A stretch of DNA of 64,000 nt from Escherichia coli (GTDB lineage Bacteria > Pseudomonadota > Gammaproteobacteria > Enterobacterales > Enterobacteriaceae), in the NCBI RefSeq assembly GCF_003018255.1, contig NZ_CP027440.1, one strand, 5' to 3'. The position numbers and the translations under genes were made by a program. This document shows positions 3,675 through 41,287 of the stretch, piece by piece; within the stretch, counting starts at the first letter, position 1; each line of letters opens with the position of its first letter. The notes below the pieces were generated by a model, which was not told where the DNA came from, did no database searches, and saw only the letters and a program-made list of their open reading frames with translations.

Positions 3675-4951
3675 TTCGCCTCCCCGATGCGCTCAAGCAC
3701 TGACTGCACCATCTGCATTCCTGTCTGACGCTCACGACTGACGGCTTCACTAAGTCGCGCATTCAGCGCCGGAAGCTGGCCTAAGGTATCCGCAACCATC
3801 GCTTGCAGGCTGCCGTCCAGTAAATGACGGATATCAATTGCCATCTCTGGTAGCCCCAGTTGTTGCATAATCCCGGCGGATTTATGTTCATAGTTGATGG
3901 CAATCGCCGGAGTGGCAAAGTTCATCGAGATAATGGCAGAGTGCAAGCGCGTACCGACGGTGAGTTCACAGGCCCCCAGAATTTTGCCCATTTCCAGATC
4001 ATTGAGTTCATCCATCACTACGTGGTAACGGGCAGGATCGCTGATGTGCTGGCGCAGGTTGAGCGCCACCATGCGGTCGTCTTTGTTATAGCTGTCGATG
4101 CCCGTACAGGTGGAAAGCGCAATCACCTGATAGCCTTCGTCGAGAATGCGATTGACCACCCCGGCAAAGGCTTTTTCATACGCTTGCTGAGTGGTGCCGA
4201 GACGTTTGTCGAACGGTGCCAGTTCGCGCAGGGTAATTGCCACCGTTTTCTGTTGTGCGGCAACGTCCAGCCAGTGTTGAACAGCATAGCTGGCGGTGAA
4301 GTCTTCAATGTGGTGATCGACCAGCCACGCGGTATCGACGCCATGTTCAACTTTTGCAGTGGTGATATTGCTGCGTTTCATCAAATCAAGGCTGACCGAT
4401 TCGCGCAGGATCAGCGCGTCGCAGTGACCAAAGACATAGTTCGCCAGTTGGTTAAATTGCTCATCCTGGAAGGGGCCGACGCTGTGACCAATCATAAACA
4501 GCGGCTTTTTCGCCATGAAAGTGCAAAGCGCATGTTCAAACTGCGGCACGCCATAGAGATCGACAAAAAACGATCCGCCGACCTGAATAATGGCGTCGTA
4601 ACCTGACAGCAGTCGCACGAAGTCAGTGAATCCCTGGGCGATGGCGATATTACGCAGCTTGCCAGTGTCGGTGACGCGTGAGAGCAATACCTGGTGCTGG
4701 TAGCGGCGACGGAGGACTTTTTTAACGCGCCCAACAACGCCCGCCGCGCTGTTGTGTTGTTTCATTTGCAGGAACAGCGGGTCGCCCATTACCGGGCGGT
4801 TGAGCAGCCAGGAAGAACTGACCGGATAGCGGCTCATCACGTCCACTTCGGCATGTGGATTGAGGATGTTGATGGCATCAAGTAAGCCACGCAGGATGGC
4901 GCTATCGCCACGATTGCCGCAAGTGTGGTTGCCCAGAATAAGTAATTTCAT
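3671..4951 (-). CDS. wcaK: colanic acid pyruvyl transferase WcaK
   Basis: 426 aa ORF (MKLLILGNHTCGNRGDSAIL...), polysaccharide pyruvyl transferase family. Confidence 0.9.
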   Translation of the reverse strand: MKLLILGNHTCGNRGDSAILRGLLDAINILNPHAEVDVMSRYPVSSSWLLNRPVMGDPLFLQMKQHNSAAGVVGRVKKVLRRRYQHQVLLSRVTDTGKLRNIAIAQGFTDFVRLLSGYDAIIQVGGSFFVDLYGVPQFEHALCTFMAKKPLFMIGHSVGPFQDEQFNQLANYVFGHCDALILRESVSLDLMKRSNITTAKVEHGVDTAWLVDHHIEDFTASYAVQHWLDVAAQQKTVAITLRELAPFDKRLGTTQQAYEKAFAGVVNRILDEGYQVIALSTCTGIDSYNKDDRMVALNLRQHISDPARYHVVMDELNDLEMGKILGACELTVGTRLHSAIISMNFATPAIAINYEHKSAGIMQQLGLPEMAIDIRHLLDGSLQAMVADTLGQLPALNARLSEAVSRERQTGMQMVQSVLERIGEAK

Positions 4952-4974
4952 TTTTTCCTCATAAATTTGATGCC

Positions 4975-5605
4975 AGGTGAGGCTGTGTTTGTTGTGTTCG
5001 TTGCCGTTTTTTGCCTGATGCGACGCTAACGCGTCTTATCAGACCTACAAGTCCCGAGCACAGAACCGTAGGCCGGATAAGGCGTTCACGCCGCATCCGG
5101 CATTCAGTGCCTGATGCGACGCTGACGCGTCTTATCAGGCCTACAAGATCCGAGCACAGAACCGTAGGACGGATAAGGCGTTCACGCCGCATCCGGCATT
5201 CAGTGCCTGATGCGACGCTGACGCGTCTTATCAGGCCTACAAGATCCGAGCACAGAACCGTAGGACGGATAAGGCGTTCACGCCGCATCCGGCATTCAGT
5301 GCCTGATGCGACGCTGACGCGTCTTATCAGGCCTACAAGACCCGAGCACAGAGCCGTAGGACGGATAAGGCGTTTTACGCCGCATCCGGCATTCAGTGCC
5401 TGATGCGACGCTGACGCGTCTTATCAGGCCTACAAGATCCGAGCACAGAACCGTAGGCCGGATAAGGCGTTCACGCCGCATCCGGCATTCAGTGCCTGAT
5501 GCGACGCTGGCGCGTCTTATCAGGCCTACAAGATCCAAGCCCAGCCCCCCAGGACGGATAAGGCGTTTTACGCCGCATCCGGCAACCGTTGCCGGAACCG
5601 AAAAC
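4975..5605. repeat. REP/BIME array, about six tandem ~98-bp units of paired inverted REP elements
   Basis: Motif gcctgatgcgacgctgacgcgtcttatcaggcctacaag...ggataaggcgttcacgccgcatccggc recurs at ~5004, 5110, 5208, 5300, 5398, 5494. Confidence 0.9.
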
Positions 5606-5611
5606 AACCAT

Positions 5612-7090
5612 TCACCCCGCCCGTAAAAGCATTTTCATTTTTTCGCTGCGACAAAACTGACGCTTCACTTCCACCACCAGCGGATGGCGTGACAGCACAA
5701 TCATCACCACAAACGCCAGCACGCCTGCGGCTATTTGCACCGCCAGCAGCATCCCCAGCGCCAGTTGCCCTTTCAGCACAATGCCCAGCGCATAACTGAC
5801 CCCCAGTGTCGGCAACGAGAGATAAAACGGCAGCCACAAACTCAGGATGTACTGGCGATAACTGGAACCAAGAACCGGTTTAATCATCACGAAGTAACTC
5901 AGAATGGTGTTGATAATCTGCACCAGCAGGAAACCGAGCGTGACGCCGATTGCGCCCGCCATCTGCCCACCAATAACAATCGCCGGAATAAACAGAAATG
6001 TTTTGAATACGTTGAATTTAAAGCTGATATCGACCCGCGCTTTCGCCATCAGCAGCGAACCAATCGGGTTACCCACCGAACGCAGCAGTCCCACCACACA
6101 CAGCAATTGCAGCACCGGAATAATGCTGTTCCACTTCTCACCAAAGACCAGCGGTACAAAGTTATTCGACACCACCATCAGCCCCAGCAGCGCCGGAAAG
6201 TTGATAATCCCCACCACCGACAGCAGCTTGTAGAAGTTGACGCGCAGCTTTTCGGTGTCGTCCTGAATTTTGGCAAATGCCGGAAACAACACGCGGGTGA
6301 TGATTGGGTTCAGCTTCATCGGCGGCACAACGGCCACGTTGTACGCCAGGTTGTATCCCCCTGCCACGCCCGCGCCGAGAATACGCGCCAGCACCAGCGT
6401 TGAAAGGTTAGTGTTGAGATAGTTGATGATGCTGTCCGCCGTCAGCCAGGCACCAAAGCGTAAGTTCGGTGCCACCGACGCCAGCGAGAAATGCAGACCG
6501 GGGCGATAAATTTTGCGACCAAAGTAGCCAAACAGCAGCGTTCTCACCGCACTATTGACCAGATAACCGAGGATCGCAGTCATCGCCAGCGGCCAGAAAT
6601 GGGCGCTAACCACCGTAAAAGTGAAGCCCGCCAGCACCGCGCTGGTTTCGATCATGCCGATTTTGTTGAACTCCAGCTCCTTCTGCATCAACGCGCGGAA
6701 CTGTTGCCCGTGGGGGATTACCACAAACGCCAGCGACAATGTTTTAATCAACGGTGCCAGGTCCGGGTTGTTCAGCACGTCACCAATGAGATCACTCAAC
6801 AAAAACACCGCCACACACACCACAAGCCCCAGCCCGACGTTTAGCCAGTACAGCGTGGTGAGTTCAAGGTGGCTGATTTCTTTTCGCTGAATAATCGAGT
6901 TAGCGATACCGAAGTCAGAAAGCGTATCTGCCAGCGCGATAATCACCAGCGACACGGTAAGCAGGCCGAACTGGTGGTTGTCGATAATCCGCGCCAGCAC
7001 GGTCATCTGCACCAGCCCAAGGCCGATGATGATCACCGTGGCAATCGCCGACCACTTCGCGCCGCTGATGGTTTTTTCACGTAAGCTCAT
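5612..7090 (-). CDS. wzxC: colanic acid repeat-unit flippase WzxC
   Basis: 492 aa polytopic membrane ORF (MSLREKTISGAKWSA...). Confidence 0.9.
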   Translation of the reverse strand: MSLREKTISGAKWSAIATVIIIGLGLVQMTVLARIIDNHQFGLLTVSLVIIALADTLSDFGIANSIIQRKEISHLELTTLYWLNVGLGLVVCVAVFLLSDLIGDVLNNPDLAPLIKTLSLAFVVIPHGQQFRALMQKELEFNKIGMIETSAVLAGFTFTVVSAHFWPLAMTAILGYLVNSAVRTLLFGYFGRKIYRPGLHFSLASVAPNLRFGAWLTADSIINYLNTNLSTLVLARILGAGVAGGYNLAYNVAVVPPMKLNPIITRVLFPAFAKIQDDTEKLRVNFYKLLSVVGIINFPALLGLMVVSNNFVPLVFGEKWNSIIPVLQLLCVVGLLRSVGNPIGSLLMAKARVDISFKFNVFKTFLFIPAIVIGGQMAGAIGVTLGFLLVQIINTILSYFVMIKPVLGSSYRQYILSLWLPFYLSLPTLGVSYALGIVLKGQLALGMLLAVQIAAGVLAFVVMIVLSRHPLVVEVKRQFCRSEKMKMLLRAG

Positions 7091-7091
7091 A

Positions 7092-8486
7092 TCAATATGC
7101 CGCTTTGTTAACGAAACCTTTGAATACCGTCAGGAAAACGATTTTGATATCGAACCAGACGCTCCATTCGCGGATGTACTCAAGGTCGAACTCGACGCGT
7201 TTTTCCATTTTCTCCAGTGTGTCGGTTTCGCCGCGCCAGCCGTTAATCTGCGCCCAGCCGGTAATGCCCGGTTTCACTTTATGGCGCAGCATGTAGCCTT
7301 CAATGAGCTGGCGATACTGTTCGTTATGCGCCACCGCGTGCGGACGTGGCCCGACAATCGACATCCCGCCAGTCAGCACATTGATAAACTGCGGCAATTC
7401 ATCCAGCGAGGTGCGGCGCAGAAAGTTCCCCACTTTGGTGACGCGCGGATCGTTCTGCGTCGCCTGGGTCACCACTTTGTCGTTCTCCATCACTTTCATG
7501 GAACGGAACTTCCACACTTTGATCGGCTTGCCGTCCATGCCGTAGCGAGTCTGGCGGAAAATAACCGGCCCCGGTGAGCTCAGTTTCACCGCCAGCGCAA
7601 TGCAGCACAGCACCGGGGAGATCAGCAGCAGGATAAGCGTCGCCAGCACAATATCTTCCGCACGTTTGAGCAGGCGGTTAACCCCGGAAAGCGGCGTGTC
7701 ATACAGCGGCACCACCGGAACGCCGTTCATCTCTTCGAGACGTGAATGGAGAATGTTGAAGGTAAAGACATCGGGGATCAGCAGCACCGAACAGGTGGTA
7801 TCCGCCAGTTGATGGACCAGTTTTTTCACTCGCGCGCCGTCGCACATTTGCATTGCGATATAGACGTTATGAATCTTGCCCGCTTTCGCATCCTCGACCA
7901 GCTGTTGCAGATTGCCCGCCCAGTCGTTAGAAACGCCGCCCGGTTTCGGGTCGTGGTAAACGCCCACCACTTCAAACCCTAACCACGGCTGATTACGGAA
8001 GCTCTCCATCAGCATTTGTCCGGCGGCTAAATCTCCCGCTACGGCGACCATGCGCTTGTTATAGCCATGATTACGCAGCCAGCCCGCCCCAATGCGAATA
8101 CACGAACGGCAAACCACCAGTCCGATGCTGGTCAGCCCATACCACGCCAGCCAGATTTTCAGTTGCGTGTCGAAATCATTGTTGAACGCCACCAGCCCGG
8201 CGCTGAAAATCACGCTTAACGTCCAGTTTTGTAGCAGCAGGGCAAATTCTGTCGCTGCCCGAACACCGCGCCATGAGCGATAAAAATCGGTGATGCCGCC
8301 CAGCATCTGGAACACCACCAGCGTAATCAGCGCCACCAACAGGTGCATGTAGAGGAATGACAGTCCGCTGACTTCGCAAACCAGCCATAGCCCGGCAAAC
8401 ATGATGGTGATATCTGAAAAGCGTTGCACCATAGAGATTAACGATGCATTGGTTTTCGCTCGCTCGCGCTTTTTTAGATTTGTCAT
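7092..8486 (-). CDS. wcaJ: undecaprenyl-phosphate glucose-1-phosphate transferase WcaJ
   Basis: 464 aa ORF with N-terminal membrane segments and C-terminal sugar-transferase domain. Confidence 0.9.
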   Translation of the reverse strand: MTNLKKRERAKTNASLISMVQRFSDITIMFAGLWLVCEVSGLSFLYMHLLVALITLVVFQMLGGITDFYRSWRGVRAATEFALLLQNWTLSVIFSAGLVAFNNDFDTQLKIWLAWYGLTSIGLVVCRSCIRIGAGWLRNHGYNKRMVAVAGDLAAGQMLMESFRNQPWLGFEVVGVYHDPKPGGVSNDWAGNLQQLVEDAKAGKIHNVYIAMQMCDGARVKKLVHQLADTTCSVLLIPDVFTFNILHSRLEEMNGVPVVPLYDTPLSGVNRLLKRAEDIVLATLILLLISPVLCCIALAVKLSSPGPVIFRQTRYGMDGKPIKVWKFRSMKVMENDKVVTQATQNDPRVTKVGNFLRRTSLDELPQFINVLTGGMSIVGPRPHAVAHNEQYRQLIEGYMLRHKVKPGITGWAQINGWRGETDTLEKMEKRVEFDLEYIREWSVWFDIKIVFLTVFKGFVNKAAY

Positions 8487-34269: not shown

Positions 34270-35118
34270 TCATGCTTCGTCTGGTTGCCAGCCTTCCGTA
34301 TACCAGATATGCAACAGCGCATAAGAACGCAAGGGCTTCCAGCGTTCGGCATAACGGCGGATTTGTGCCGGTGTCATTCCCGGAAATCGCTGTTTAATCA
34401 GATAATCATCCGGCAGGAAAACATCTTTCGCCTGCCAGCCGCGCAAGGCGAAATAATTCGCCGTCCAGCGCCCGATACCCGGAAAAGTTTGCAGCGTTTT
34501 CATCGCCTGCTCCACATCGCCCGGTATTGTCATTGGTAAGGTGCCCTCCAGCGCCGCATTTGCCAGATGAATCAGCGCCTCTGCCCGTTTCAACGGCATA
34601 CCTAACGCTTTTAATGCCTGCGGATCTGCTGCTGCCAGCCGCTGAGGCGTGGGGAAGCAGACATAATCCGGAAAATCATCCAGCCTTTCGCCATAAAGCT
34701 GTGCCACTCTGGCGGTCAATTTTGCCGCCATCGCCACGCTCACCAGCTGGCCTAAAATCGCCCGCACGCCCTGCTCAAAAGCATCAACACAACCGGGTAA
34801 ACGCAATCCGGGCCGTGCCGCGCCTAACTTGCCCAACGCACCGTTAACAATCTGCGGGTTACATTGCAGATCAAACAGGCGGCTCATTTTCGCCAGACAC
34901 TCTGCGGCAACGGGTTCTAAACCTGCACTTAAATTTATGTGCAGAGTATGGCTGGCTATATCCGGAATAGCAGTCACCACGCCGCGACATTCGCCCACCG
35001 CCAGACTACGGGCATAATAATCGTCAGCGACCGTTTCCACACCGTTCACCGCACGGGCGGCGAGAAATCCCAACATCCACGACCAGTCATACGGCGGCTG
35101 CCAGTTCAGGGTATACAT
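34270..35118 (-). CDS. alkA: 3-methyladenine DNA glycosylase II
   Basis: 282 aa ORF (MYTLNWQPPYDWSWMLGFLAARAV...). Confidence 0.92.
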   Translation of the reverse strand: MYTLNWQPPYDWSWMLGFLAARAVNGVETVADDYYARSLAVGECRGVVTAIPDIASHTLHINLSAGLEPVAAECLAKMSRLFDLQCNPQIVNGALGKLGAARPGLRLPGCVDAFEQGVRAILGQLVSVAMAAKLTARVAQLYGERLDDFPDYVCFPTPQRLAAADPQALKALGMPLKRAEALIHLANAALEGTLPMTIPGDVEQAMKTLQTFPGIGRWTANYFALRGWQAKDVFLPDDYLIKQRFPGMTPAQIRRYAERWKPLRSYALLHIWYTEGWQPDEA

Positions 35119-35251: not shown

Positions 35252-36604
35252 GTGTTTATTGGTTTTGATTACGGTACAGCAAACTGTTCAGTGGCGGTCA
35301 TGCGCGACGGTAAGCCGCAATTACTGAAAATGGAAAACGACAGCACGCTGCTGCCTTCAATGCTTTGCGCGCCAACGCGTGAAGCGGTAAGCGAATGGCT
35401 GTACCGCCATCATGATGTTCCGGCAGACGACGATGAAACGCAGGCGCTGTTGCGTCGGGCGATTCGTTATAACCGCGAAGAAGATATCGATGTTACGGCG
35501 AAAAGCGTGCAGTTCGGTCTTTCCTCACTGGCACAGTACATTGATGATCCAGAAGAGGTGTGGTTTGTGAAATCACCAAAATCATTCCTCGGTGCCAGCG
35601 GCTTAAAACCGCAGCAGGTAGCGCTGTTTGAGGATCTGGTCTGCGCAATGATGTTGCACATTCGCCAGCAGGCGCAGGCGCAGCTGCCGGAGGCAATTAC
35701 TCAGGCGGTGATTGGTCGCCCGATCAACTTCCAGGGGCTGGGCGGCGATGAAGCAAACGCCCAGGCGCAAGGGATTCTGGAACGCGCGGCGAAGCGTGCC
35801 GGGTTTAAGGATGTGGTATTCCAGTACGAGCCGGTCGCGGCTGGGCTGGATTACGAAGCCACCTTGCAGGAAGAAAAACGGGTGCTGGTGGTGGATATCG
35901 GCGGTGGTACGACTGACTGTTCATTGCTGCTGATGGGGCCGCAGTGGCGTTCGCGTCTCGATCGTGAAGCCAGCCTGCTGGGTCACAGTGGTTGCCGTAT
36001 TGGCGGTAACGATCTGGATATCGCACTGGCGTTTAAAAACCTGATGCCGTTACTGGGCATGGGTGGCGAAACCGAAAAAGGCATCGCCCTGCCGATTCTG
36101 CCGTGGTGGAATGCGGTTGCCATCAACGACGTTCCTGCGCAAAGTGATTTCTACAGTAGTGCCAACGGTCGTCTGCTTAACGACCTGGTACGCGATGCCC
36201 GCGAACCGGAAAAAGTGGCCCTGTTACAGAAAGTCTGGCGTCAGCGTTTAAGCTATCGCCTGGTACGTAGCGCAGAAGAGAGCAAAATTGCGCTTTCAAG
36301 CGTAGCGGAAACCCGCGCCTCACTGCCGTTTATCAGCGATGAACTGGCTACGCTGATTAGCCAGCAAGGGCTGGAAAGCGCCCTCAGCCAGCCACTGGCG
36401 CGGATTCTGGAACAGGTGCAACTGGCGCTGGATAACGCCCAGGAAAAACCGGATGTTATCTATCTGACCGGCGGTAGCGCCCGTTCACCGCTGATTAAAA
36501 AAGCGCTGACAGAACAGTTGCCGGGCATTCCGATTGCAGGTGGCGATGACTTTGGCTCCGTCACCGCCGGGCTGGCACGCTGGGCGGAAGTGGTGTTTCG
36601 TTAA
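35252..36604 (+). CDS. yegD: Hsp70-family (actin-like ATPase) protein YegD
   Basis: ORF 35189-36604; start placed at MFIGFDYGTANCSVAV giving 450 aa; DnaK-like N-terminal motif. Confidence 0.85.
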   Translation: MFIGFDYGTANCSVAVMRDGKPQLLKMENDSTLLPSMLCAPTREAVSEWLYRHHDVPADDDETQALLRRAIRYNREEDIDVTAKSVQFGLSSLAQYIDDPEEVWFVKSPKSFLGASGLKPQQVALFEDLVCAMMLHIRQQAQAQLPEAITQAVIGRPINFQGLGGDEANAQAQGILERAAKRAGFKDVVFQYEPVAAGLDYEATLQEEKRVLVVDIGGGTTDCSLLLMGPQWRSRLDREASLLGHSGCRIGGNDLDIALAFKNLMPLLGMGGETEKGIALPILPWWNAVAINDVPAQSDFYSSANGRLLNDLVRDAREPEKVALLQKVWRQRLSYRLVRSAEESKIALSSVAETRASLPFISDELATLISQQGLESALSQPLARILEQVQLALDNAQEKPDVIYLTGGSARSPLIKKALTEQLPGIPIAGGDDFGSVTAGLARWAEVVFR

Positions 36605-36616
36605 TTGAAAACTGGC

Positions 36617-38566
36617 TCAGCAACGGCTTAAATCAGCCTGCGCCTGAGCCAGTTTTTCTGCCGCCTGACGTAGCGGTTCCATCAACGGCATGGTCCGTGC
36701 TGGAGCATGAAGGCGGAATCGCTGCAACTCTGTCGCACCGACATTCAGCGCCGATTCCAGCCGATGTCGTTTGGCGGCCATTTTTGCCATTACCGCTTGT
36801 CTGTCTGCAGGCGTTACCGCTTCGTTCGGCCTGAACACAAAACGGCGTTCACAGCTCGCTTTCCAGTCGATAACCGCCTGGGTCAGATGATCACCAAAAC
36901 CTTTCACTTGCTTAACGCTCCGTCGGGTAACATCCGCTGCTGTTTCAATACCAAAGGACCGTAACGCCGCTTTACGCGCAGGGCCAACGCCGGGAATAGA
37001 GGCAACATCAATAAAAAATCCCTCCAGAAACTTCTGCTTCTGCCGTTCCCTTGCGGTGTCCTGAAGTGCTGCCAGATCGCGCTTTTCTTCTTCCGGTAAC
37101 CCAAGAATTTCGTCCTTCATTTTTTCGAGCATCGTCCGTTTGGCGATAAAACCTTCCAGCCCGCCCAACTGCTGGATCTGGCTGACTAAATGGTCATAGT
37201 CCATTTTCGCGCGATTAAACGCCTCACGGCGTTGCTGGATTTCTGCTTTGTACGCTTTGCTTGTCAGGCTGCCAATAATCCAGATAGCCGCCAGCACAGG
37301 AACCAAAATAATATAACGTGGTTCTGTCTGAAGGCCGCAAAGCAGCAGCGATAACGCTGACAGTGCGATCTCAATCAGAATGATGTATTCACGCCTTAAC
37401 AGGCCTAAAGGAAGCGGCCTGCCAGTCGGTTGGAAATGATCGGGTAATGGTAATTGCAATGCTGGCGGTGCTACTGACGCCATCACCATCGCCCAGACTT
37501 TCGCCAGCACAAAATCACCGCTGGTGGTAATGACCTCTTCGCCGAGATCAATAAAATAGATAACGCCTTGATTATCCAGAGCACACCACGGGCAGTCAGC
37601 CAAATGACCGGGATAAACATGCATTGCCGAAACGGTACATTTCTTTAACTGTTGGCGTAGTAAATCAAGTGCCGCTACCCACGCTTTTGCCGTCGGACGC
37701 CCGGTTGCCACGCCACTTTCCGTGAATGCCTGCTGAAACATGGCTTCAACATCGCCCGGTAACATCGACAGCGGAATAGATCGTGGCGGCGGTTTTAAAC
37801 CACGTCGCTGATTATCTGACGCGTAGGCATAACGGAAATGGGCAATATCCGTCTCCAGTGCATTACCCGCATCAGAGACAAGCGGTACACCGGAATAAGG
37901 ATGCCGCCCACCAAACAAGACGTGAAAAATCAGCAACGCAAGGCCAAAATTATCGTGATTCGCGGTGCGTTCAAAGCCGACAAATGATGGCAAGGTTTGT
38001 TGCTCTGGCGGCGTAAAATGCGACACGCCGACTTCGCATAAATGCAGCGTGCCATTGGCGTTAATCTGAAAGGAGTCGCTATCAATCAACACCACTTTGC
38101 TGTCGCGACCTACCATAAAGCTGTTCTGGTTTACGTCACCCACGACGTGCCCGTGCTCGTGAATCGTAGCAAAAGATGAAGCAATATTGCGCGCAACATA
38201 GAGTAGAAAATCCCACGCACAATGAGGGTAACGTTGACGACGATGTGCCGGGCTATAGATCATATGAATCGGTTCTTTACCAGAAACTTTTGGCATCATA
38301 AAACCGATTACTTTTCCGCCTCGTCCACCGTGAAGCGTTGCCTGCGGCCAGGCGACATAATTCAACAACTGCGCGTCAGCTGTCGCAGCCATAAAGGCAA
38401 GTTTGTCCTGTTTTAAGGCGGGTGGCGGCGTGTGATAAATCTTGGCGACGCTATCGACAAACTCCTCGATATCATAAACCGCGCCTTCACCGCCTTTGCC
38501 CAGTTCACAGCCTGGCGTAACGCACTCACCAGTAGCAGTATATAAAGTGGGTTTCATGGTAACCAC
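36617..38566 (-). CDS. yegI: protein kinase-like protein YegI
   Basis: 649 aa ORF; kinase-like catalytic stretch (HGHVVGDVNQNSFMV, LIDSDSF), central TM segment, C-terminal helix-hairpin-helix-like region; overlaps yegK by 13 bp. Confidence 0.8.
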   Translation of the reverse strand: MVTMKPTLYTATGECVTPGCELGKGGEGAVYDIEEFVDSVAKIYHTPPPALKQDKLAFMAATADAQLLNYVAWPQATLHGGRGGKVIGFMMPKVSGKEPIHMIYSPAHRRQRYPHCAWDFLLYVARNIASSFATIHEHGHVVGDVNQNSFMVGRDSKVVLIDSDSFQINANGTLHLCEVGVSHFTPPEQQTLPSFVGFERTANHDNFGLALLIFHVLFGGRHPYSGVPLVSDAGNALETDIAHFRYAYASDNQRRGLKPPPRSIPLSMLPGDVEAMFQQAFTESGVATGRPTAKAWVAALDLLRQQLKKCTVSAMHVYPGHLADCPWCALDNQGVIYFIDLGEEVITTSGDFVLAKVWAMVMASVAPPALQLPLPDHFQPTGRPLPLGLLRREYIILIEIALSALSLLLCGLQTEPRYIILVPVLAAIWIIGSLTSKAYKAEIQQRREAFNRAKMDYDHLVSQIQQLGGLEGFIAKRTMLEKMKDEILGLPEEEKRDLAALQDTARERQKQKFLEGFFIDVASIPGVGPARKAALRSFGIETAADVTRRSVKQVKGFGDHLTQAVIDWKASCERRFVFRPNEAVTPADRQAVMAKMAAKRHRLESALNVGATELQRFRLHAPARTMPLMEPLRQAAEKLAQAQADLSRC

Positions 38567-39315
38567 AGCGCCAGTGCCAACGTTTTATCATCATCGGTAC
38601 GCTCGTTTACCGCCGGGCCGGACAAAAACTGCTTTAACAATTCAGGTAATAAATCGAGTTGTTCCTGCGTTGCTGACGCCAGCCCATTGAAAAACGGGGT
38701 AAAGAAAGGCACATGCGGAGAATTATCCAGCATATTTAACGCCAGCCGCTGGATACCATCCGTAAATGCTGCAACTTTGTGCGCACGCTCAGTGCTGGTG
38801 AAAGTTTCCAGTCTGGAAACGGCATCTTCATCGGTAATGAAGTGCGTCATATTGGTATATTCACCCACCATCGGCGTGAGCGGCAGTTGCAAACCGTGCC
38901 CCAAATCTACCACCACGCCGCCATCGCCAATCTGCATAATCAAGGTGCCATTAGCTGATGAAATCAATCCCAAAAACGTGCAGGCAAAATCGCGAACCGC
39001 TAATTCTTTGGCTTCCGCCTCGGCAAAAAGTCGCTGACGAATGGTCAGCACAATGTCCGTTGCGAGAACATCATTAAGCCCCAATTCCCCGCCCTGCACT
39101 TTTTGCGACATATAAGCCATCGCTTCATTGACGGCGAGCATCGCACCTTCGCCTCCCTGCGAGGCGCTACCTGCGCCATCAGCGACAAATACCGACAATA
39201 ATGGCTGCTGGTCATTTAACCAGGCAACCTGCATCTGGCAGGCATCCTGGCAAGGCAAGTCCGCGCTGATGTGCGACGTTCCAACGGTTGATGCATAGAC
39301 CAGACGCCAGCTCAC
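38554..39315 (-). CDS. yegK: PP2C-family Ser/Thr phosphatase YegK (PphC)
   Basis: 253 aa ORF with PP2C-like acidic metal-binding motifs (VADGAGS, FTDGI); 4-bp overlap with yegL. Confidence 0.8.
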
Positions 39316-39971
39316 ACTGACGTCCAGCCTTTTGGCGCTTCCAGCACAACTTCCGTTCCCGGCGTGGAGCGGGAAACCGAACGCAGCGAACTGGATAACC
39401 AGCTAAATAGTTCGCGGAATTGTAATCCTTGAAGAGGCAAAGGCTGACGAACGCTGATTTGGGCCAGCGTCTTCATATCCGCCCCCTGAACACCGATGGA
39501 AAAGAAGGCAAACTTCTTATCTTCTTCCCCCTGAAACACCTTGTTGGCAGCAGCCTGCCACTCATCGGTTGGTGCGCCATCGGTAATCAGGAAAATCCAC
39601 GGACGATAATAGGAAATACCATTGGCGCGATACTCACGTTTGCGCTCCTCAACCATATCCAGGGCTTTGGTAATGGCGGCCCCCATTGGTGTATCGCCCT
39701 GGGCAAACAGGATGGGCGGGAAAAAATTAGCGGCGCTGGTAAATGGTTGTTCCACATGCACCGGGCCGAACGTCACAATGCCGAGTTCCACTCTTTTTAA
39801 GGCCAGCGGATCGGCAAGCAGCTCATCGCGAAAGGTAACCAATCCGGCGTTAAGTTCATTAATAGGTCTACCGTTCATAGAACCAGAAACATCCAACAGC
39901 AAAATGCAGGGGCAACGTGGTTCCGGGTTACTGGCAAAATCGCTGGTGGCAAACGTGATTTGTTCGCTCAT
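39312..39971 (-). CDS. yegL: von Willebrand factor A domain protein YegL
   Basis: 219 aa ORF with MIDAS-like DxSxS motif (LLLDVSGSM). Confidence 0.8.
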
Positions 39972-40152
39972 AAGAAATCCTTTCTTAGAGAATTATTGAG
40001 GCCCGGTATCATACCGACTGCAACAATGAAATAAGAGCAAACGAAGAAACTTTCAGAATTAGGCCCGGCGGCGCAGAAAATTTTGCTATTCGCCTCGCAA
40101 GAACGGAGAGCCGTCGATTGACACTAAGGGCGGAGTGACATAATTTCAGGAG

Positions 40153-40298
40153 TGAGGGTTAGGGAGAGGTTTCCCCCTCCCCCTGGTGTTCTTAGTAAGC
40201 CTGGAAGCTAATCACTAAGAGTATCACCAGTATGATGACGTGCTTCATCATAACCCTTTCCTTATTAAAAGCCCTCTTCTCCGGGAGAGGGTTTCCCG
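40153..40298 (+). ncRNA. sib: Sib antitoxin sRNA, repeat unit 1 (antisense to ibs unit 1)
   Basis: -35 TTGACA (40118-40123), 17-bp spacer, -10 TAATTT (40141-40146); ends at hairpin ccctct...agaggg plus TTTCCCGTTT; ends approximate. Confidence 0.6.
40192..40251 (-). CDS. ibs: Ibs type I toxin peptide, unit 1 (MMKHVIILVILLVISFQAY)
   Basis: 19-codon hydrophobic ORF fully antisense to Sib unit 1; matches recalled Ibs family pattern MMK...LLVISFPAY. Confidence 0.7.
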   Translation of the reverse strand: MMKHVIILVILLVISFQAY

Positions 40299-40487
40299 TT
40301 TCAGCGTCCCGCTGAAATCGTCGGCTTACCTCCTTTCGCCCTGAATGCAGTCTATCGCTAACGCGTGAACAAAATAGTTTCCTCTGTGATTATTGCGTAA
40401 CGACTCGCAAAGAATATTTGCTGGCAGGATCGCAGACTACAAAGCCTGCGGATTGACAATCTTATCGTGAAGGCATAATTTCAGGAG

Positions 40488-40628
40488 TGAGGGTAGAGCG
40501 GGGTTTCCCCCGCCCTGGTAGTCTTAGTAAGCTGGCCAGCTAATAACTAAGAGCACCACGATGATGAGTAGCTTCATCATGACCCTTTCCTTATTTAAGG
40601 CCCCTTCCTCGGGAGGGGCTTTCCCGTT
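40488..40628 (+). ncRNA. sib: Sib antitoxin sRNA, repeat unit 2
   Basis: -35 TTGACA (40453-40458), 17-bp spacer, -10 TAATTT (40476-40481); terminator gccccttcctcgggaggggc plus T-tract. Confidence 0.6.
40524..40580 (-). CDS. ibs: Ibs type I toxin peptide, unit 2 (MMKLLIIVVLLVISWPAY)
   Basis: 18-codon hydrophobic ORF antisense to Sib unit 2. Confidence 0.7.
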   Translation of the reverse strand: MMKLLIIVVLLVISWPAY

Positions 40629-40815
40629 TCAGCGTCCCGCTGAAATCGGCGGCCTACCTCCTTTCGCCATGCAAGCAGTCTATCGCTAACTTGCAGATAA
40701 AATAGTTTCACATGTGATTATTGCGTAACGTCTCGCAAAGAATATTTGCTGGCAGGATCGCAGACTACAAAGCCTGCGGATTGACAATCTAATTGTGAAG
40801 GCATACTTTCAGGAG

Positions 40816-40956
40816 TGAGGGTAGAGCGGGGTTTCCCCCGCCCTGGTAGTCTTAGTAAGCCGGGAAGCTTATGACTAAGAGCACCACGATGATGATCCAC
40901 TTCATCATGACCCTTTCCTTATTTAAGGCCCCTTCCTCGGGAGGGGCTTTCCCGTT
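40816..40956 (+). ncRNA. sib: Sib antitoxin sRNA, repeat unit 3
   Basis: -35 TTGACA (40781-40786), weaker -10 TACTTT (40804-40809); same terminator hairpin as unit 2. Confidence 0.55.
40852..40908 (-). CDS. ibs: Ibs type I toxin peptide, unit 3 (MMKWIIIVVLLVISFPAY)
   Basis: 18-codon hydrophobic ORF antisense to Sib unit 3. Confidence 0.7.
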   Translation of the reverse strand: MMKWIIIVVLLVISFPAY

Positions 40957-41143
40957 TCAGCGTCCCGCTGAAATCATCGGCTTACCTCCTTTCGCCCTGA
41001 ATGCAGTCTATCGCTGACTTGCGGATAAAATAGTTTCACATGTGATTATTGCGTGACGTCTCGCAAAGAATATTTGCTGGCAGGATCGCAGACTGCAAAG
41101 CCTGCGGATTGACAATCGGACCGTGAAGGCATACTTTCAGGAG

Positions 41144-41287
41144 TGAGGGTAGAGCGGGGTTTCCCCCGCCCTGGTAGTCTTAGTAAGCTGGGTAGCTAAC
41201 GACTAAGAGCACCACGATGATGAGTATCTTCATCATGACCCTTTCCTTATTTAAGGCCCCTTCCTCGGGAGGGGCTTGCCCGTTTCA
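41144..41287 (+). ncRNA. sib: Sib antitoxin sRNA, repeat unit 4
   Basis: -35 TTGACA (41109-41114), -10 TACTTT (41132-41137); terminator hairpin followed by an interrupted T-tract (cttgcccgtttc). Confidence 0.5.
41180..41236 (-). CDS. ibs: Ibs type I toxin peptide, unit 4 (MMKILIIVVLLVVSYPAY)
   Basis: 18-codon hydrophobic ORF antisense to Sib unit 4. Confidence 0.7.
   Translation of the reverse strand: MMKILIIVVLLVVSYPAY

Follow-up and report, generated by a model that had tools for sequence, protein, structure and literature searches.

The genes considered here lie in a 64,000-nucleotide stretch of Escherichia coli DNA (assembly GCF_003018255.1, contig NZ_CP027440.1), which is called the window below. 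Between positions 36617 and 39971 of the window three genes on the minus strand, yegL, pphC (formerly yegK), and yegI, follow one another with overlapping stops and starts. They encode a protein with a von Willebrand factor A (vWA) domain, a PP2C phosphatase, and a Ser/Thr kinase, respectively. A preliminary description, made from the sequence alone, had presented them as one translationally coupled triad and had placed them among the bacterial signalling or conflict systems. The genes and their junctions are as follows.

39312..39971, minus strand: yegL, 219 aa, from the open reading frame (ORF) list and the RefSeq annotation.
38554..39315, minus strand: pphC, 253 aa, with a GTG start, from the ORF list, the RefSeq annotation, and a PP2C_2 match.
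36617..38557, minus strand: yegI, 646 aa from the RefSeq ATG; an alternative GTG at 38566 gives 649 aa.
39312..39315, minus strand: GTGA overlap of 4 nt between the yegL stop TGA and the pphC start GTG, read as ...ACG TCA GTG TGA.
38554..38557, minus strand: ATGA overlap of 4 nt between the pphC stop TGA and the yegI start ATG, read as ...TTA CCA TGA.
38513..38562: junction segment of 50 bp made up of the pphC 3' end and the yegI 5' end; K-12 has 785 bp instead, as found by blastn and direct comparison.

By megablast, the chromosomes of several complete E. coli genomes are 100% identical to the 5-kb part of the window from 36000 to 41000, and 5,423 of 5,426 genomes match it at lower identity. 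The exact DNA match and the RefSeq annotation bear out the names yegL, yegK, and yegI that had been assigned from the sequence. Both sequence and synteny identify the genes as the E. coli yegL-pphC-yegI operon (b2073, b2072, b2070), located between yegD and ibsA/sibA-mdtA. The window and MG1655 share ~96% nucleotide identity and have identical flanking genes, and the YegL, PphC, and YegI proteins are 94.6-99.1% identical to those of K-12. yegD is convergent to yegI and 12 bp away from it, and further out lie alkA and dgcE. On the yegL side there is an ibs/sib type I toxin-antitoxin repeat array, followed by mdtABC. The locus is the one studied in REL606 and MG1655 (Rajagopalan, Nagle & Dworkin, J Bacteriol 2018; Rajagopalan & Dworkin, FEBS Lett 2020), with the same position from yegD to ibs/sib and the same 4-nt overlaps. 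The window shares with REL606 the arrangement without yegJ and the 646-aa YegI, and the differences are allelic only. The genes, the enzyme activities, the ATGA overlap, the K-versus-B difference in yegJ, and the two-pass topology of YegI are all published already. The additions made here are the counts of the yegJ forms, the distribution across phyla, the conservation of YegL, the lack of a fourth gene, the defence genes in the neighbourhood, and the evidence of purifying selection.

The overlap of stop and start codons at both junctions supports a single translationally coupled unit. The preliminary description had given overlaps of 4 and 13 nt, of which the first, between yegL and pphC (GTGA), stands. 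The second is more likely to be 4 nt as well (ATGA). An in-frame GTG at 38566, three codons 5' of the yegI ATG, opens the longest ORF and would give the 13-nt overlap; however, homologues begin level with the ATG at 38557 in the alignment, and RefSeq uses that ATG. The ATGA overlap of pphC and yegI has been described before (Rajagopalan & Dworkin, bioRxiv 819920, FEBS Lett 2020). yegL is preceded by a Shine-Dalgarno-like sequence, AAGAAAGGA. A Shine-Dalgarno sequence was looked for 5' of yegI and not found, which fits coupling by termination and reinitiation. Simple consensus scans of the operon for internal promoters and terminators gave none above the shuffled background.

The junction of pphC and yegI differs between strains. 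The 785-bp segment that takes its place in K-12 MG1655 (6936-7720 of the extracted locus L002) has a GC content of 37%, against 52% for the operon, and carries yegJ on the opposite strand. Both the absence of yegJ from the cluster in the window and its presence in K-12, which had been put forward with some doubt, are confirmed by alignment with MG1655. The K-12 segment also gives YegI another N-terminus (MKTNIKVFTSTGELTTLGRELGKGG; the first ~17 residues differ from the window) and PphC another end (...LWAE versus ...LWLP in the window, a difference in the last two residues). Since the replaced N-terminus of YegI is still homologous, the comparison suggests that recombination with a divergent copy of the locus brought in the yegJ segment, and that it is not a clean insertion.

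Of the 5,426 complete E. coli genomes, 3,471 have the uninterrupted junction and 1,934 have the yegJ segment, the latter at 90-100% identity. As these 1,934 genomes belong to several lineages, yegJ is not confined to K-12-like strains; it is missing from ~64% of the complete genomes. The other Escherichia (E. whittamii, E. marmotae, and further species) and all more distant homologues have the uninterrupted form, and it is reasoned that this form is ancestral. In some strains an IS1 element lies inside yegJ. It has been reported that in K strains yegJ lies between pphC and yegI and that B and many pathogenic strains are without it (Rajagopalan & Dworkin), and also that YegJ binds RNase E and that yegJ is missing outside K strains (RNA Biology paper, 2026). 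The arrangement in the window therefore differs from that of K-12, but the difference is a published polymorphism.

The assignments of a vWA protein with a metal ion-dependent adhesion site (MIDAS) and of a PP2C-like phosphatase are borne out by Pfam VWA, the MIDAS residues, and PP2C_2. PphC matches PP2C_2 over residues 11-220 (4.1e-52). Among 74 orthologues the conserved elements are DGAGS (with D46), QiGDG, the aspartate of FTDG (~residue 186), and the C-terminal RTdDDKT; the profile match and the conserved metal-binding aspartates place PphC in the PP2C/PPM family. The purified protein is a Mn2+-dependent PP2C that is inactivated by D46N and is active yet without two of the eight canonical residues (bioRxiv 303594, J Bacteriol 2018). 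PphC dephosphorylates YegI in vitro (Rajagopalan & Dworkin, bioRxiv 303594 / 819920).

YegI is a protein of several parts, which are listed here from the N- to the C-terminus.

37658..38557, minus strand: YegI 1-300, atypical Hanks-type kinase domain with GxGGEG loop, K39, D141, PPE, and R287.
37583..37639, minus strand: YegI 307-325, probable zinc knuckle or ribbon, C307-x5-H313-x8-C322-P-W324-C325, invariant in 40 sequences and 26 longer relatives.
37259..37393, minus strand: YegI 389-433, membrane hairpin with the loop QTEPR; Kyte-Doolittle peaks at ~391-409 and 415-433, helices in the AlphaFold2 (AF2) model.
36833..37027, minus strand: YegI 511-575, two helix-hairpin-helix (HhH) motifs, (HhH)2, presumed DNA-binding and cytoplasmic; HHH_5 match.
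36623..36811, minus strand: YegI 583-645, single long helix at the C-terminus with the conserved LAQAxADL at its end, from the AF2 model and the alignment.

The kinase-like fold that had been proposed for YegI is not found by the Pfam Pkinase profile, which gives no match even at E <= 10. The assignment was tested by structure prediction, fold search, and relatives for this reason, and on these grounds it holds. The AF2 model has a predicted local distance difference test score (pLDDT) of 91.3, and its best match in the PDB is the kinase domain of PknB, followed by ~1,900 other kinase chains. The TM-score to PknB is 0.71 (target-normalised), and the best matches, PknB and eukaryotic kinases, have values of 0.6-0.73 at a probability of 1.00. 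As for the relatives, 22 of 26 longer family members match Pkinase at E <= 0.001, and precomputed Pfam annotations give Pkinase for three of the relatives (P0143, P0157, P0223). There are also weak kinase-type matches of YegI itself to the NCBIfam LanL kinase domain (7e-7), to PADLOC PD-T4-6 (6e-5), and to MkoA, and marginal ones to NleH1 and a MAPKK-like protein in a sequence search of the PDB. The residues G22, E24, K39, D141, N143, D159, D161, S162, P184, E185, D202, H219, and R287 are invariant in 40 full-length homologues. The Gly-rich loop, the ATP-binding Lys, the catalytic Asp, and the metal-binding Asp of a bilobal kinase are all present, with HRD appearing as VGD (containing the catalytic D141) and DFG as DSD. 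Published mutagenesis points the same way: YegI autophosphorylates on S153, S160, and S162 with second-order kinetics, K39D and D141N are inactive, and DSD is essential (bioRxiv 819920).

Beyond the kinase domain, residues 307-325 form two short strands and then a helix in the model (pLDDT > 90), and from the invariant cysteines and histidine we infer that this segment binds zinc. A poorly conserved linker leads from it to the membrane hairpin. The preliminary description had a single central transmembrane segment here, which needs correction: two hydrophobic helices form a hairpin. This agrees with the published two-pass topology, in which PhoA-LacZ fusions show that YegI crosses the inner membrane twice and has its N- and C-terminal ends in the cytoplasm (Rajagopalan & Dworkin). 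A long coiled-coil helix connects the hairpin to the HhH region. The C-terminal HhH-like region that had been seen in the sequence is confirmed by a match to Pfam HHH_5 at residues 515-551 (7.6e-4) and by the conserved motifs GIGxxRKAxLxSFGIETAAD and GFGxxLT in the alignment of homologues. The last helix (583-645) is probably a coiled-coil or dimerisation element.

YegL is a vWA protein with a MIDAS site at which metal binding is predicted. It matches Pfam VWA (1.7e-9), and the MIDAS residues are complete (D27xS29xS31, T94, D131) and invariant across 36 orthologues. A conserved RCPC motif lies immediately on the N-terminal side of the MIDAS motif. The AF2 model (pLDDT 86) matches the fold of vWF-A3, ANTXR (anthrax receptor), and integrin I domains. 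W191, S193, S195, S200, and S202 are also invariant, and they occupy the last vWA helix and the Ser-rich tail just beyond it. In integrin I domains there is allosteric coupling between the last helix and the MIDAS site, which makes the Ser-rich last helix of YegL a plausible phospho-acceptor. YegL is the best conserved member of the triad, with a median identity to non-Escherichia orthologues of 67%, versus 42% for PphC and 40% for YegI. Because of this constraint, and of an invariant co-occurrence described below, we infer that YegL is an obligatory, cytoplasmic third partner of YegI and PphC. In a published overexpression screen, YegL and YegI are each strong DNA-damage-up proteins when overproduced (Xia et al., bioRxiv 354589); the same lists include MdtA and MdtB of the adjacent operon (bioRxiv 354589).

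The triad is far more widespread than E. coli. In a representative library, YegI has relatives in 3,130 clusters at 50% identity (E <= 1e-30), and most of the best 150 clusters are ~645 residues long and align from end to end. A genome scan gave 377 species-level hits, which span Proteobacteria, Actinobacteria, Firmicutes, Planctomycetota, Acidobacteria, Chlorobi, Synergistetes, and the archaeon Methanoregula. The loci were analysed for the best 80 of these 377, which include Burkholderiales, Pseudomonas, Chromatium, Frankia, Georgenia, Paenibacillus, Planctomycetota, Acidobacteria, Chlorobiaceae, Synergistaceae, and Methanoregula. In every one of the 80 loci with upstream DNA, homologues of the vWA protein and of PP2C are encoded 5' of the kinase in the same order and orientation. 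The three genes are directly adjacent except in two loci that have a gap between vWA and PP2C, L041 (~7 kb) and L089. In the latter (Candidatus Contendobacter odensis, 4893-8342) a 1,149-aa restriction-modification (RM) gene of the Eco57I/MmeI type lies within the triad and overlaps the end of the vWA gene. Clustering of 1,285 neighbouring ORFs from the 80 loci, with an ORF caller that is crude in high-GC genomes, gave no conserved fourth gene or effector beyond lineage-level synteny.

Several features of this distribution point to mobility. The scattered cassettes have kinase identities of 36-60%, and within the Enterobacteriaceae the identity is 91% in E. marmotae and falls at once to 62% in Klebsiella. 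Plasmids also carry full-length homologues: 22 of the 52 matching records are typed as conjugative, and the plasmids include Pseudomonas megaplasmids, among them that of SBW25. There is no match to YegI in the 50,697 phage genomes of INPHARED, and IMG/VR has three matching loci. The triad has full-length matches to the PHROGs v4 families phrog_37888, phrog_37072, and phrog_28389. We do not count them in favour of a phage origin: these families are essentially E. coli YegI, PphC, and YegL themselves and, given the empty phage genomes and the mere three loci of IMG/VR, most likely represent host genes in prophage calls.

Genes of known defence systems are frequent near the triad. Within 8 kb they are found in five of ten Pfam-annotated contexts (L003, L005, L006, L009, L095). 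The Klebsiella context has a type I RM system, GmrSD, SymE, and BrnA; that of Piscinibacter has BrxR, JetB, a Schlafen-like helicase, and ScoMcrA; and that of Chromobacterium has AbiH and a KAP NTPase and adjoins a Tn7-like element. One metagenomic contig carries a type I RM system together with Mrr, and another has Mrr directly 3' of the triad. A count by BLAST with 12 defence query proteins gave 8 of the 80 loci and was discarded as too insensitive.

In E. coli the operon is kept by purifying selection on all three genes, judging from their coding sequences, and is not decaying. When the window is compared with K-12, with strain 2022N21-074-17, and with three other Escherichia species, the ratios of nonsynonymous to synonymous substitution rates (dN/dS) are 0.02-0.06 for yegL, 0.12-0.16 for pphC, and 0.12-0.17 for yegI. 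One yegI pair was left out of this range; it is the comparison with 2022N21-074-17, whose value of 0.68 is unreliable and probably reflects an alignment problem at the replaced 5' end. Against K-12 the synonymous divergence (dS) of the triad is 0.17-0.18, higher than that of yegD (0.10). A mosaic locus was also seen in E. coli E69 (CP089930.1; 2980-3741 of L046). Its PphC is 82% identical to that of the window (dS 0.83), and its YegL and YegI are 97% and 93% identical (dS ~0.3), a contrast that suggests the acquisition of a divergent pphC allele through recombination.

Among known systems the TerY-P triads are the closest in design. Secondary accounts of the work of Anantharaman, Iyer & Aravind (2012) describe them as phosphorylation switches tied to DNA processing and restriction, and define them by vWA, PP2C, and kinase genes in one conserved neighbourhood, an arrangement that is found here. 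As these accounts present them, TerY-P triads, including the CoCoNuT type II/III-A triads, are alike in having a MIDAS vWA protein, a PP2C, and a kinase with a C-terminal zinc- or nucleic-acid-binding extension, and alike also in mobility and in frequent restriction-system neighbours. Unlike in those triads, YegI adds a membrane hairpin, a coiled coil, and (HhH)2, and the E. coli triad has no ter, McrBC/CoCoNuT, or type VII secretion genes beside it and stands alone at a core chromosomal site. A stand-alone TerY-P system, composed of a vWA protein, a Ser/Thr phosphatase, and a kinase that carries an OB fold, is active in defence against T7-like phages (Gao et al. 2020). The present triad resembles it as a stand-alone three-gene cassette and differs in that its kinase has a hairpin and HhH motifs in place of the C-terminal OB fold. 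By its gene content, then, the triad is built, and predicted to work, like TerY-P; since the PADLOC models of the tested TerY-P system do not detect it, we leave it outside that defence family.

Two other groups of proteins offer partial parallels. The pairs PknB/PstP (M. tuberculosis), PrkC/PrpC (B. subtilis), and PpkA/PppA (P. aeruginosa) likewise have a kinase beside a PP2C, and autophosphorylation of the activation loop is undone by the partner phosphatase; PknB is also the best structural match of YegI. PpkA also carries a vWA domain. In contrast to these Hanks-type pairs, YegI is without an extracytoplasmic sensor domain, has the VGD and DSD motifs, and escapes Pfam Pkinase, and its vWA partner is a separate cytoplasmic protein. 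The second parallel is the vWA protein ArnB of Sulfolobus (structure 8s05), which is among the structural matches of the YegL model. Its C-terminal Ser/Thr-rich tail is phosphorylated by Hanks-type kinases, and this gives a precedent for the role proposed below for the Ser-rich tail of YegL. It is an analogy only: the system of ArnA and ArnB with the kinases ArnC and ArnD regulates the archaellum, no FHA partner is found here, and only the fold is shared.

On balance, and with modest confidence, we favour the view that the region is an ancestral, uninterrupted operon encoding a self-contained switch of the TerY-P type, probably a mobile stress or conflict module. The framing of the triad as a signalling or conflict system in the preliminary description fits with this, given the TerY-P concept, the invariant cassette, its patchy spread across domains of life, and the frequent restriction and abortive infection (Abi) neighbours. 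The narrower claim that the module serves conflict or defence is possible, but we consider it somewhat doubtful. The biochemical core has been established in vitro: YegI prefers Mn2+ and autophosphorylates activation-loop serines, and PphC removes the phosphates (Rajagopalan & Dworkin). The membrane-anchored kinase thus activates itself, probably in trans, and the phosphatase reverses this. In the mechanism that we propose, YegL would be a substrate of YegI through its Ser-rich C-terminal helix and tail or, alternatively, its MIDAS site might recognise, in a metal-dependent way, a residue that is phosphorylated or acidic. The cytoplasmic zinc knuckle, coiled coil, and (HhH)2 of YegI could tie its dimerisation and activation to nucleic acid close to the membrane. 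The presence of (HhH)2 and the result of the DNA-damage-up screen for YegL and YegI are a hint of such a link to DNA. No effector gene travels with the triad, which suggests that its output would be the phosphorylation of host or invader proteins by YegI. Taken as a whole, the module would then be a horizontally mobile cassette that responds to invading DNA, phage, or DNA stress, rather than an E. coli-specific housekeeping device.

A number of observations weigh against this interpretation. The operon has the GC content of the genome average (52%), and at least 5,408 of the 5,426 complete genomes of E. coli have it at the same, fixed position, as expected of a core gene set and not of an accessory island. 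A search of PADLOC-DB 2.0 at E <= 10 places the triad in no known defence system: PphC has no match, YegI has weak matches to generic kinase models, and YegL has a weak match to the TerY model (E = 0.014, residues 90-169). The ten contexts are a small sample without a matched control; four are without defence genes (housekeeping or uninformative neighbours) and one is ambiguous. DNA binding by the HhH region is presumed, and both roles offered for YegL are read from its conserved residues. In the literature to 2026 there is no report of a phenotype, an inducing condition, or a substrate, and the earlier statement that the physiological target is not established therefore holds. A literature search found no published phage assay of yegLKI.

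A rival view is that the triad is a domesticated signalling pathway at the species level in Escherichia, acting for example in stationary phase, at the envelope, or in the response to DNA damage on housekeeping substrates and with no role in defence. We regard this as rather unlikely. The points in its favour are the fixed site, which is found in other Escherichia as well, strong purifying selection, fully ameliorated GC content, no attached effector gene, and the failure of defence-system hidden Markov models to recognise the triad. It does not explain why the cassette is scattered over phyla, archaea, and conjugative plasmids, often beside RM, Abi, and BrxR genes, or why there is no close orthologue in the nearest enterobacterial genera. 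A more particular proposal is that the triad shares a pathway with the Hsp70-like YegD and, in K-type strains, with the RNase E-binding YegJ. The short convergent spacing of yegD and yegI speaks for it, as does the finding that overproduction of YegJ strongly induces yegD, from which a common pathway has been speculated (RNA Biology paper, 2026). However, YegD is adjacent in only 4 of the 80 loci, all of them from Escherichia, and in none of the ten contexts, and it was rejected as a module member on this ground; yegJ is absent from most genomes, lies on a foreign segment, and breaks the coupling rather than completing it. Such a shared pathway is accordingly improbable.

It is hardly credible that E. 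coli retains, as a silent and decaying remnant without current function, an operon acquired horizontally long ago. Two laboratories saw no growth condition with robust expression, the published account being that no such condition and no substrate are known (Rajagopalan & Dworkin), and K-12 tolerates the disruption of pphC-yegI coupling by yegJ. But the reading frames are intact in the window, K-12, and 2022N21-074-17, the locus is retained in nearly all genomes, with all three genes annotated by RefSeq in every hit listed, and the enzymes purified from B and K strains are active. The signature of selection, with dN/dS of 0.02-0.17, essentially refutes decay. Returning to the stress or conflict module, its boldest form is that yegL-pphC-yegI is an unrecognised, widespread branch of TerY-P-like immunity, found in bacteria, archaea, and plasmids, in which YegI would sense incoming nucleic acid at the inner membrane through (HhH)2, dimerise on it, and phosphorylate YegL on its Ser-rich C-terminal helix; this would switch the MIDAS site of YegL, and PphC would reset the system. 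This is a tentative proposal that we hold to be unlikely as it stands. If it is true, the E. coli core genome holds an uncharacterised system for defence or DNA surveillance that escapes the present tools for finding such systems.

E. coli has few Ser/Thr kinases. The locus itself is ordinary and annotated, and the comparative data sharpen the question of what YegI does. The picture of an invariant mobile cassette with a constrained YegL, no effector, and restriction and Abi neighbours directs attention to YegL as the partner of the kinase. It also suggests that K-12 is the wrong strain in which to study the operon, since yegJ breaks the coupling there.

Some further observations concern the flanks of the operon. 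Four tandem Sib RNA/ibs repeats lie between yegL and mdtA at 40118-41251 of the window (Rfam SIB_RNA, 137-150 bits each). The same site in K-12 MG1655 has two copies only, sibA/ibsA and sibB/ibsB, and the copy number is thus strain-variable. In E. coli 2022N21-074-17 (NZ_CM125674.1; 9504-12767 of L007) the ibs/sib array and mdtA are separated by an inserted retron Eco8, which consists of a reverse transcriptase and an effector endonuclease; its place beside the triad indicates that the region is an integration spot for a defence system in some E. coli strains. On the other side, alkA (34270-35118) is an intact ORF in the window, with 282 aa as in K-12. The RefSeq annotation of strain SCU-171, whose sequence equals that of the window from 36000 to 41000, gives alkA as frameshifted.

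A last observation is from the more distant loci. In several loci of the Burkholderiales type, a highly conserved basic protein of 69-70 aa (MKFGMRKPS...RGWGWLTNPKRAAYNRVYSRTTFS...) is encoded directly 5' of the vWA gene, and in two of them a staphylococcal-nuclease-like gene with an N-terminal signal-like sequence lies between the small protein and the vWA gene. The loci with the small protein or the nuclease are L005 (5719-6474), L010 (5700-6501), and L009 (6075-6284). Homologues of one or the other occur in ~6 of the 80 genome loci, and the small basic protein may be an optional accessory of the triad or cargo of a shared mobile element.

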